Virus record (IMG/VR): IMGVR_UViG_2778261064_000020
Span: 1-39,924 of that record
Source: a virus
Taxonomy: Duplodnaviria; Heunggongvirae; Uroviricota; Caudoviricetes
Strand: one strand, 5' to 3'
Length of the DNA stretch: 39,924 bases
Position numbers and translations under genes: made by a program. Within the stretch, counting starts at the first letter, position 1; each line of letters opens with the position of its first letter. The notes under the pieces were generated by a model. That model did not search any database. It had not been told where the DNA came from and saw only the letters and a program-made list of their open reading frames with translations. This document shows positions 16,713 to 16,868 of this stretch, piece after piece.

Positions 16713-16787
16713 GGGTCAGTCGTATAAAGGTCATTACGGAAGGCTGTTAACCTTCTTATCGTGGTTCGAGTCCACGCTGTCCCGCCA
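16713..16787 (+). tRNA. tRNA with anticodon GUU (Asn-type), atypical (one acceptor-stem mismatch, 3-bp D-stem)
   Basis: Manual cloverleaf fold: anticodon stem GAAGG/CCTTC, loop CTGTTAA, T-arm CGTGG-TTCGAGT-CCACG, 3' GCCA end; no CCA... discriminator G then CCA present. Confidence 0.5.
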
Positions 16788-16792
16788 AATAT

Positions 16793-16868
16793 GCTGGTTT
16801 AGCTCCAATGGTAGAGCAGTCGCCTTGTAAGCGAATGGGTAGCGGTTCAAGTCCGTTAACCAGCACCA
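16793..16868 (+). tRNA. tRNA with anticodon UGU (Thr-type)
   Basis: Manual fold: perfect 7-bp acceptor stem GCTGGTT/AACCAGC, D-arm GCTC-CAATGGTA-GAGC, anticodon loop CTTGTAA, T-arm AGCGG-TTCAAGT-CCGTT, discriminator A then CCA. Confidence 0.7.

Follow-up and report, generated by a model that had tools for sequence, protein, structure and literature searches.

The DNA analyzed here, a stretch of 39,924 nucleotides hereafter called the window, is a P22-type prophage resembling Sf6, HK620 and N7, integrated at argW. Its left end carries a gene for a LacY-family permease, and its right end an integrase gene (37523-38716), a tRNA-Arg(CCT) gene (38842-38916) and a gene of the formate/nitrite-transporter family. 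The sar RNA of the immI region was recognized in the window by Rfam, and the early-left region of the prophage encodes RecT, a Gp157-like protein and DUF proteins. We were concerned with the late-control region, in which two tRNA genes lie between the gene for the Q antiterminator and the first late gene. The features of this region are as follows.

16133-16621, plus strand: gene for the Q antiterminator, phage 21 type (162 of 162 amino acids identical to phage 21 Q; Pfam Phage_antitermQ, E = 1e-24)
16628-16663, plus strand: late promoter pR', phage 21 type (-35 at 16628-16633, -10 at 16651-16656, transcription start at 16663)
16636-16651, plus strand: Q-binding element, with the same bases as the phage 21 feature
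16665-16712, plus strand: tR', intrinsic terminator of the late leader, equal to the terminator annotated in phage 21
16713-16787, plus strand: tRNA-Asn(GUU), 75 nt, CCA encoded, G73 discriminator, 4-nt variable loop (ARAGORN)
16788-16792, plus strand: spacer AATAT, 5 nt, between tRNA-Asn and tRNA-Thr (read from the sequence)
16793-16868, plus strand: tRNA-Thr(UGU), 76 nt, CCA encoded, A73, G1-C72, C2-G71, G39 (ARAGORN)
17110-17433, plus strand: holin gene, the first late gene (from the list of open reading frames; the same position is occupied by the holin gene in Sf6 and HK446)

When the features of phage 21 (OL657228) were placed on the window with an offset of +15099, no base was found to differ from that annotation in the -35 element, the Q-binding element, the -10 element or the transcription start. 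A start for Q at GTG 16076, offered by the ORF finder, was rejected as an over-extension, the match to phage 21 Q beginning at ATG 16133. In the predicted fold of positions 16663-16880, tR' forms a long hairpin followed by UUUUUUUAUUU, and its T-tract runs directly into G1 of tRNA-Asn, with no gap. The cassette thus occupies the late leader between Q and the holin gene, as the initial annotation had placed it, about 240 nt upstream of the holin gene, which is followed by genes for the endolysin and then the spanins. A simple scan for sigma-70-like promoters found none in 16300-17300; the same scan also overlooks the genuine pR', because the -10 element of the latter is AACACT, and its result therefore says little about internal promoters. 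Since the anatomy of pR' and tR' is that of phage 21, and tR' abuts tRNA-Asn, the tRNAs would be expected to lead the late operon and to be transcribed only once Q enables RNA polymerase to pass tR'. Host tRNA-processing enzymes would then excise the two precursors, whose CCA ends are already encoded.

ARAGORN called three tRNAs over the whole window, the third being the tRNA-Arg(CCT) at the right end. Its coordinates for the other two coincide exactly with the segment (16713-16868) in which a pair of tRNA genes had been proposed, and it agrees with the anticodons, GUU and UGU, that had been derived by manual folding. Against the Rfam model RF00005 (gathering cutoff, 29 bits) the tRNA-Asn scores 55.3 bits (E = 2e-9 for the whole window) and the tRNA-Thr 61.5 bits (E = 4e-11, likewise), both being aligned over model positions 1-71 of 71; a permissive Rfam search of 16500-17150 found no RNA families beyond these two. 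In the ARAGORN cloverleaf the acceptor stem of tRNA-Asn reads G1-C72, G2-C71, G3-C70, U4·U69, C5-G68, A6-U67, G7-C66, and in both the cloverleaf and the Rfam alignment its D-stem comprises G10-C25, U11-A24 and A12-U23 with a non-pair at U13·U22, so that the acceptor-stem U-U mismatch and the three-base-pair D-stem reported at the outset are confirmed. Its anticodon stem consists of five standard pairs, G27-C43 to G31-C39. The tRNA-Thr, originally described as clean, is indeed a tRNA with anticodon UGU, but it harbors a mismatch, G27·A43, at the top of the anticodon stem (a "v" marks it in the Rfam alignment, and the ARAGORN drawing shows g.a), which together with the U28-A42 pair directly below it constitutes a functionally important irregularity; such loss of the 27:43 pair, with shortening of the stem, occurs in tRNA-Thr and not in tRNA-Asn, where the pair is intact. 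The anticodon loops of both phage tRNAs are those of the host (CUUGUAA and CUGUUAA), differences from the host being confined to the stems. Asparaginyl-tRNA synthetase recognizes G34, U35, U36 and G73, and threonyl-tRNA synthetase recognizes G1-C72, C2-G71, G35 and U36; each of these identity sets is complete in the corresponding tRNA.

The Asn/Thr cassette is not new; it has been annotated before, and the central mechanism of its tRNA-Thr was published in 2025-2026. A megablast search with the region matched 93 phage records; both tRNAs are annotated in phage 21 (99.4%), SfI, Sf6, BTP1, SPN9CC, Oslo and others, and the GenBank record of Sf6 labels them "similar to phage 21". Of 5426 complete E. 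coli genomes, 369 contain the pair, and PGAP annotates both genes. In the SfI genome paper, tandem Asn(GUU) and Thr(UGU) genes were described downstream of Q, also in Sf6, ST64T, PS3 and p21; its authors reported a bias for ACA (17.3 vs 7.1), proposed a role for tRNA-Thr in reading this codon, found no codon bias for Asn, and considered the significance of tRNA-Asn "not clear". The BTP1 paper makes no mention of tRNA, and Azam et al. (2024) name a tRNA-Asn only for SP15, which is unrelated.

Two sets of homologues were assembled, one of 119 IMG/VR loci recruited with the D-arm of tRNA-Asn as anchor, and one of 8 loci from species-representative genomes anchored on the anticodon and T-arms. The composition of the arrays among the 119 IMG/VR loci is as follows.

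Asn-Thr: 95
Asn-Gly(UCC): 7
Asn alone: 4
Asn-Phe-Thr-Arg(UCU): 4
Asn-Phe-Thr: 2
Asn-Thr-Arg: 2
No tRNA called: 2
Asn-Thr-Gly, Asn-Phe and Asn-Phe-Thr-Arg-Gly: 1 each

A tRNA-Lys(UUU) is absent from the window and from all 119 of these loci. The tRNA-Asn is the constant element of the array, kept more faithfully than any other, and it persists where tRNA-Thr decays, as in phages ST64T and L and in the Asn-only and Asn-Gly arrays. In ST64T and L the tRNA-Thr has suffered a 4-nt deletion, is rejected by ARAGORN and carries the GenBank label "Leu TAA"; in JLK-2012 and one IMG/VR locus its 3' half has been exchanged for a sequence resembling host thrU. Such decay and chimerism imply that tRNA-Thr is dispensable in some hosts.

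Both tRNAs bear clear marks of selection on structure. Six pairs of tRNA-Asn covary, with 27 cells changed on both sides, as do eight pairs of tRNA-Thr, with 16 such cells; in neither case did any of 500 shuffles match the observed score, and in slid controls for both tRNAs only 21-52% of cells were paired. Compensatory changes span the acceptor, anticodon and T stems of both molecules, in alleles that include those of Klebsiella phage Mulock and Mixta. In the acceptor stem of tRNA-Asn they convert 5:68 from C-G to A-U, 6:67 from A-U to G-C and 7:66 from G-C to A-U, and in its anticodon stem they convert 28:42 from A-U to C-G or U-A and 29:41 from A-U to U-A. Amid these exchanges, position 4:69 is kept as U·U in 18 of 20 distinct tRNA-Asn alleles (108 of 113 IMG/VR copies), and U13·U22 is unpaired in all 20, including those of Mixta and Phytobacter, whose recruitment did not depend on a fixed D-arm. 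The discriminator G73 is found in nearly all alleles, with U in one of the 20 distinct variants. Moreover, the same D-arm, GUAU / AAAGGUUA / UUAC, and the variable loop UUAU recur in the tRNA-Asn of a T4-like coliphage and of an Erwinia jumbo phage, in both of which 4:69 is U·G. Because its neighbors covary, the U·U persists and the D-arm is common to distant phages, the non-canonical positions of tRNA-Asn are hallmarks of an old, phage-specific lineage and not of decay. The irregularity of tRNA-Thr is similarly stable: G27·A43 occurs in 21 of 22 alleles (101 of 102 IMG/VR copies), alongside C2-G71 in 22 of 22 distinct variants and G1-C72 in 21 of 22.

The function of tRNA-Thr can be addressed through published experiments on the identical sequence, since the tRNA-Thr of the window does not differ from its phage 21 counterpart, nor the Asn-Thr pair from that of HK446 (100% over 156 nt). 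The Old protein of P2, the effector in the classic interference between P2 and lambda, is lethal because it degrades the tRNA-Thr(UGU) of the host, from which it amputates the anticodon arm, and the phage 21 molecule ("tRNA-Thr21") protected cells and resisted purified Old (Govande et al. 2025, NAR, PMC12445682). The features singled out in that study are precisely the G27·A43 and U28-A42 present in the window. The tRNA-Thr of HK446 proved a strong counter-defense, restoring the plating of the Old-sensitive phages HK97, HK542 and Bas34 (bioRxiv 10.64898/2026.07.10.737580). In both studies the phage sequence acted in trans from a plasmid, and cells or phages that the phage tRNA-Thr protects were not protected by extra host thrU (PMC12445682; bioRxiv 10.64898/2026.07.10.737580); as surplus thrU fails, it is the resistance of the phage sequence that matters and not merely its dosage. 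Resistance to Old, and rescue by this tRNA-Thr sequence, are thus experimentally established, and the initial suggestion that phage tRNAs can counter tRNA-cleaving defenses is borne out for this molecule. The protection is partial, given that lambda is not rescued from Old by the viral tRNA-Thr alone (bioRxiv 10.64898/2026.07.10.737580). Old also depletes Gly(UCC), fMet, Val(UAC) and Pro(UGG) (bioRxiv 10.64898/2026.07.10.737580); the first of these, Gly(UCC), is carried by some relatives of the cassette.

The sequence of the phage tRNA-Thr accords with such a role. It shares its anticodon with thrU, which is the primary target of Old and the one tRNA gene of K-12 whose product reads ACA (PMC12445682), and the CNG motif is altered in its anticodon stem, which reads U28-C-G30 with C40-G-A42 where the host has C28-U-G30 with C40-A-G42. 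The tRNA-Thr serves as a nuclease-resistant stand-in for the single-copy thrU of the host: U28-A42 takes the place of C28-G42, G27·A43 shortens the stem, and ACA codons stay readable under attack by Old, as was demonstrated by experiment for the identical sequence. In the early-left region of the prophage, no Pfam match was found for Gam or Abc2, which are candidate triggers of Old; the recombination module of HK446, comprising Erf, Abc2 and gp33, differs from that of the window.

Codon usage, suggested at the outset as both a role for the tRNAs and a check on it, was counted in 35 confidently coding open reading frames of the window and compared with a sample of 42 K-12 genes. ACA occurs at 17.2 per 1000 in the window and 19.8 in its late genes, against 5.4 in the K-12 sample (odds ratio 3.2, p = 4e-18; 3.2-fold enrichment overall and 3.7-fold in late genes), and codons for Asn (AAC + AAT) at 49.6 and 54.6, against 37.7 (odds ratio 1.33; 1.3-fold overall and 1.45-fold in late genes). 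The tRNA-Thr would therefore add decoding capacity for ACA, whose over-use is strongest in the late genes, and compensation for ACA is a real second benefit of its carriage. That this is the whole explanation, with no role of the cassette against defense nucleases, we consider unlikely. Such a reading draws on the excess of ACA, on the status of thrU as the sole ACA reader in K-12 (PMC12445682), on the addition by relatives of Arg(UCU) and Gly(UCC), readers of rare A-ending codons, and on the proposal of the SfI authors. However, the rare codons that are most over-used, AGA (9.4 per 1000 vs 1.2 in the K-12 sample), AGG (5.5 vs 0.7) and ATA (9.4 vs 2.4), enriched 4- to 8-fold, have no tRNA in the window; Asn is served by an abundant, multi-copy host tRNA and its codons are only mildly enriched, the SfI authors having seen no bias at all; and surplus thrU fails where the phage tRNA-Thr protects. 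Codon compensation explains neither the carriage of tRNA-Asn nor the choice of this particular pair. Compensation and counter-defense against nucleases are not mutually exclusive.

Three other explanations fare less well. The initial annotation had raised the possibility that tRNA-Asn is degenerate, that is, a pseudogene hitch-hiking beside a functional tRNA-Thr, and its two non-Watson-Crick positions, U4·U69 and U13·U22, invite that view; to this we give almost no credence, as the molecule scores 55.3 bits, retains its synthetase identity set, shows six compensated stem pairs around the two fixed non-pairs, conserves those non-pairs over alleles of Escherichia, Klebsiella and Mixta, shares the GUAU/UUAC D-arm with T4-like and jumbo phages, and outlasts tRNA-Thr where the latter has decayed or is missing. 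It is scarcely more probable that the tRNAs act as RNA-processing punctuation, whereby RNase P and 3' processing would free the late mRNA from the pR' leader and terminator and set its 5' end, with decoding playing no part. The junction of the cassette with the tR' T-tract in late regions of both the Q21 and Q-lambda types, and the roughly 240 nt that separate it from the first late gene downstream, would suit that purpose, but processing alone would not need the conserved anticodons, identity elements and host-like loops; tRNA-Thr works in trans from a plasmid; and lambda and P22 manage, to our knowledge, with no tRNA at this site. An equally improbable proposal is that the cassette counters nucleases that cut the anticodon loop (PrrC-like enzymes, HepS, colicin E5) and not Toprim enzymes that cut the stem. 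HepS does cleave tRNA-Thr isoacceptors, UGU included, but its main target, Thr(GGU), is not supplied by the phage, and the phage loops are identical to those of the host, offering no obvious escape. With differences from the host confined to the stems, and host-like loops, the cassette fits evasion of stem-cutting Toprim nucleases, not of loop cutters.

Whether tRNA-Asn participates in that evasion is a matter of comparison with the known substrates. Host tRNA-Asn(GUU) is cleaved by Old, more slowly than thrU (Govande et al. 2025, PMC12445682), and is depleted, as a secondary target, by AriB, the nuclease of PARIS, which is related to Old (Burman 2024; Belukhina 2025). Host asnT carries a paired CNG motif, C28-G-G30 with C40-C-G42, and A37; the tRNA-Asn of the window has instead A28-A-G30 with C40-U-U42, an A28-U42 pair, and CNG on neither strand. 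AriB cuts between positions 40 and 41, adjoining U36-A-A-U39, and a change of U39 alone abolishes its cleavage of tRNA-Lys (Burman 2024; Belukhina 2025). At this site, the cut being marked by a slash, the host motifs are UAAUC/A and UAAUC/C, while the phage tRNA-Thr reads UAAG39C/G41 and the phage tRNA-Asn U36-A-A-C39-C40/U41, respectively. These alterations are consistent with a tRNA-Asn that could replace host tRNA-Asn(GUU) in the face of stem-cutting nucleases, a role that we regard as plausible though somewhat short of an even chance. The same anticodon pair, Asn(GUU) and Thr(UGU), is also found in P1 and in an N4-like phage, each of which has just two or three tRNAs. On the other hand, four of the five pairs of the anticodon stem differ between the phage and host molecules, so that changes at 28, 39 and 41 are to be expected from general divergence in any case; 12 of 113 IMG/VR copies of tRNA-Asn (a Klebsiella-type allele) have C28-G42, which brings CNG back on both strands; and the tRNA-Asn of P1 retains a host-like site, UAAUC/A.

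A complete set for the bypass of PARIS can be dismissed. Bypass requires a resistant tRNA-Lys(UUU) (Burman 2024; Belukhina 2025), and neither the window nor any of the 119 related IMG/VR loci contains a tRNA-Lys; with this prime target of AriB missing, the cassette alone cannot neutralize PARIS as characterized. A more specific proposal, which we put forward only tentatively, is that tRNA-Asn may be a resistant stand-in against Toprim tRNases of the OLD family, in which U4·U69 and U13·U22 would act as anti-determinants, and that Asn and Thr, with or without Gly(UCC), may form a compact anti-Toprim cassette that lambdoid and P22-like phages have come to share, with counterparts of the same anticodons in P1 and the N4-like phage. 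The targets in such a scheme could be P2 Old, or PARIS-like AriB variants that prefer Thr and Asn over Lys. The two non-pairs might fend off a nuclease or toxin whose recognition depends on the body of the tRNA.

Taken together, the evidence makes it very probable that this is a mobile cassette of lambdoid and P22-like phages, located after tR' and dependent on Q, in which tRNA-Thr provides an Old-resistant replacement for thrU and additional decoding of ACA, and in which tRNA-Asn is functional, its likeliest role being a replacement of the same kind. Although the genes themselves are ordinary annotation, the cassette provides a worked example of the recent shift in understanding of phage tRNAs, and its tRNA-Thr is one of few tRNAs of temperate phages with a demonstrated anti-defense role. 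Should tRNA-Asn likewise prove nuclease-resistant, about 7% of complete E. coli genomes would hold, in a prophage, a two-tRNA counter-measure against nucleases of the OLD family.

The niche in the late leader is shared with Stx phages of the 933W type, in which ileZ-argN-argO lies downstream of Q. Those tRNAs read the rare codons AUA and AGA/AGG and are usually seen as codon compensation for stx and the late genes. The closest counterpart of the cassette is in phage 21 (OL657228), where Q is 100% identical and both tRNAs are identical to those of the window; over 331 nt there are two differences, both outside the tRNAs, one of them in the spacer at 16790 (T vs C). The bearers are nonetheless distinct, phage 21 being a lambda-like siphovirus that lyses by pinholin and SAR-endolysin, and the window an Sf6/HK620-like prophage of P22 type at argW. 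In Sf6, SfI, BTP1, SPN9CC and HK446 the cassette is 97-100% identical and likewise lies between Q and the holin gene. In HK446 the identical tRNAs follow a Q and a tR' of lambda type, the two parts meeting within the T-tract; the cassette is thus mobile irrespective of the Q/qut type that it accompanies.

More distant arrays vary in membership. JLK-2012 combines its chimeric Thr with Gly(UCC), and Klebsiella phage Mulock has an Asn-Phe-Thr-Arg array. In P1, Asn(GUU) and Thr(UGU) are adjacent and in the same order as in the window, and in P1 as in JLK-2012 the tRNAs are followed by tciA/tciB; identity between P1 and the window is about 80%, for Thr only, and the P1 molecules differ in that the acceptor stem of Asn is fully paired and Thr keeps C28-G42. 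The T5 phages used in comparison are lytic and carry large sets of tRNAs, including a resistant tRNA-Lys, whereas the cassette of the window lacks tRNA-Lys and belongs to the late operon of a temperate phage. In both, the anticodons are those of the targeted host tRNAs and the changes are limited to the anticodon stem. The same alterations are encountered at the AriB site, the Thr of T5 having G39 (UAAGC), as does the Thr of the window, and the Asn of T5 having U39 replaced, as does the Asn of the window.

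Phage HK446 (NC_019714.1; locus L142) contains the identical 156-nt tRNA pair, beginning at position 17098 of that locus and left without annotation in the record. There it lies directly 3' of a lambda-type tR' terminator, downstream of a lambda-type Q gene, and this placement shows that recombination moves the cassette separately from the Q/qut module; the T-tract of the terminator is the junction. In the window, the Q ORF as drawn by the ORF finder begins at a GTG codon (16076-16621, 181 aa). The product initiated at the ATG at 16133 comprises 162 aa and shows 100% identity to Q of phage 21, which makes the longer ORF an over-extension.

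The tRNA-Thr gene of the cassette occurs in altered and alternative forms among related loci. Chimeric genes in JLK-2012 (L009, locus positions 893-968) and in an IMG/VR locus (L115) combine a phage-type 5' half with a 3' half that resembles the host gene thrU from the anticodon stem onward, suggesting recombination between the phage and host genes; the JLK-2012 version has mismatches in the anticodon stem and is rejected by ARAGORN. In phage L (L006, locus positions 781-852), as in ST64T and ST160, the cassette's second tRNA is a decayed gene with a 4-nt deletion, and the tRNA-Asn is intact in these phages. The decayed gene of phage L is recorded as 'tRNA-Leu (TAA)' and elicits no ARAGORN call. 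Two further IMG/VR loci (L073 and L075) encode a distinct, 75-nt family of tRNA-Thr(UGU) adjoining the same tRNA-Asn. Its two alleles differ within the anticodon arm only at positions 31, 32 and 39 (A31-U39 with U32 versus C31-G39 with C32), and at one additional position in the acceptor stem. Position 39, variable between these alleles, is the position critical for cleavage by the PARIS nuclease AriB.

Other features of the window concern the prophage at large:

1-1248, plus strand: LacY-family sugar permease gene, left end
7509-8192, minus strand: accessory gene with nucleotide-modification-associated domain 5 (Nmad5; Pfam E = 2e-71)
18802-18864, plus strand: int-alpA RNA motif (Rfam RF02996; 45.1 bits, cutoff 35.8)
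34571-34638, minus strand: P22 immI-region antisense RNA sar (RF00262, 92.3 bits)
37523-38716, minus strand: tyrosine integrase, right end
38842-38916, minus strand: complete tRNA-Arg(CCT), argW, right end
38992-39924, minus strand: formate/nitrite-transporter-family gene, right end

The prophage borders lie within 37523-39924 and 1-1248, and the permease is possibly a sucrose permease of the csc locus. The sar RNA, which overlaps an ant-like ORF (34573-35574) where that ORF starts, marks the prophage as P22-like. The Nmad5 gene adjoins the N antiterminator gene (8144-8560), a slot that in lambdoid phages is a frequent site of defence and anti-defence genes. The int-alpA motif has the lysis cassette on one side and the terminase genes on the other and lies directly 5' of a 72-aa DUF551 ORF (18881-19099), an unexpected site for an element named from integrase and alpA leaders.

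The pairing of Asn(GUU) with Thr(UGU) recurs in unrelated phages whose tRNA sets are very small, namely P1, where the order is Asn-Thr followed by tciA/B (L008, locus positions 1425-1578), and the N4-like phage Bas69, where it is Asn-Ser-Thr (L141, 137-386). In Klebsiella phage Mulock (L007, 701-1020), the lambdoid cassette itself is enlarged to Asn-Phe(GAA)-Thr-Arg(UCU).
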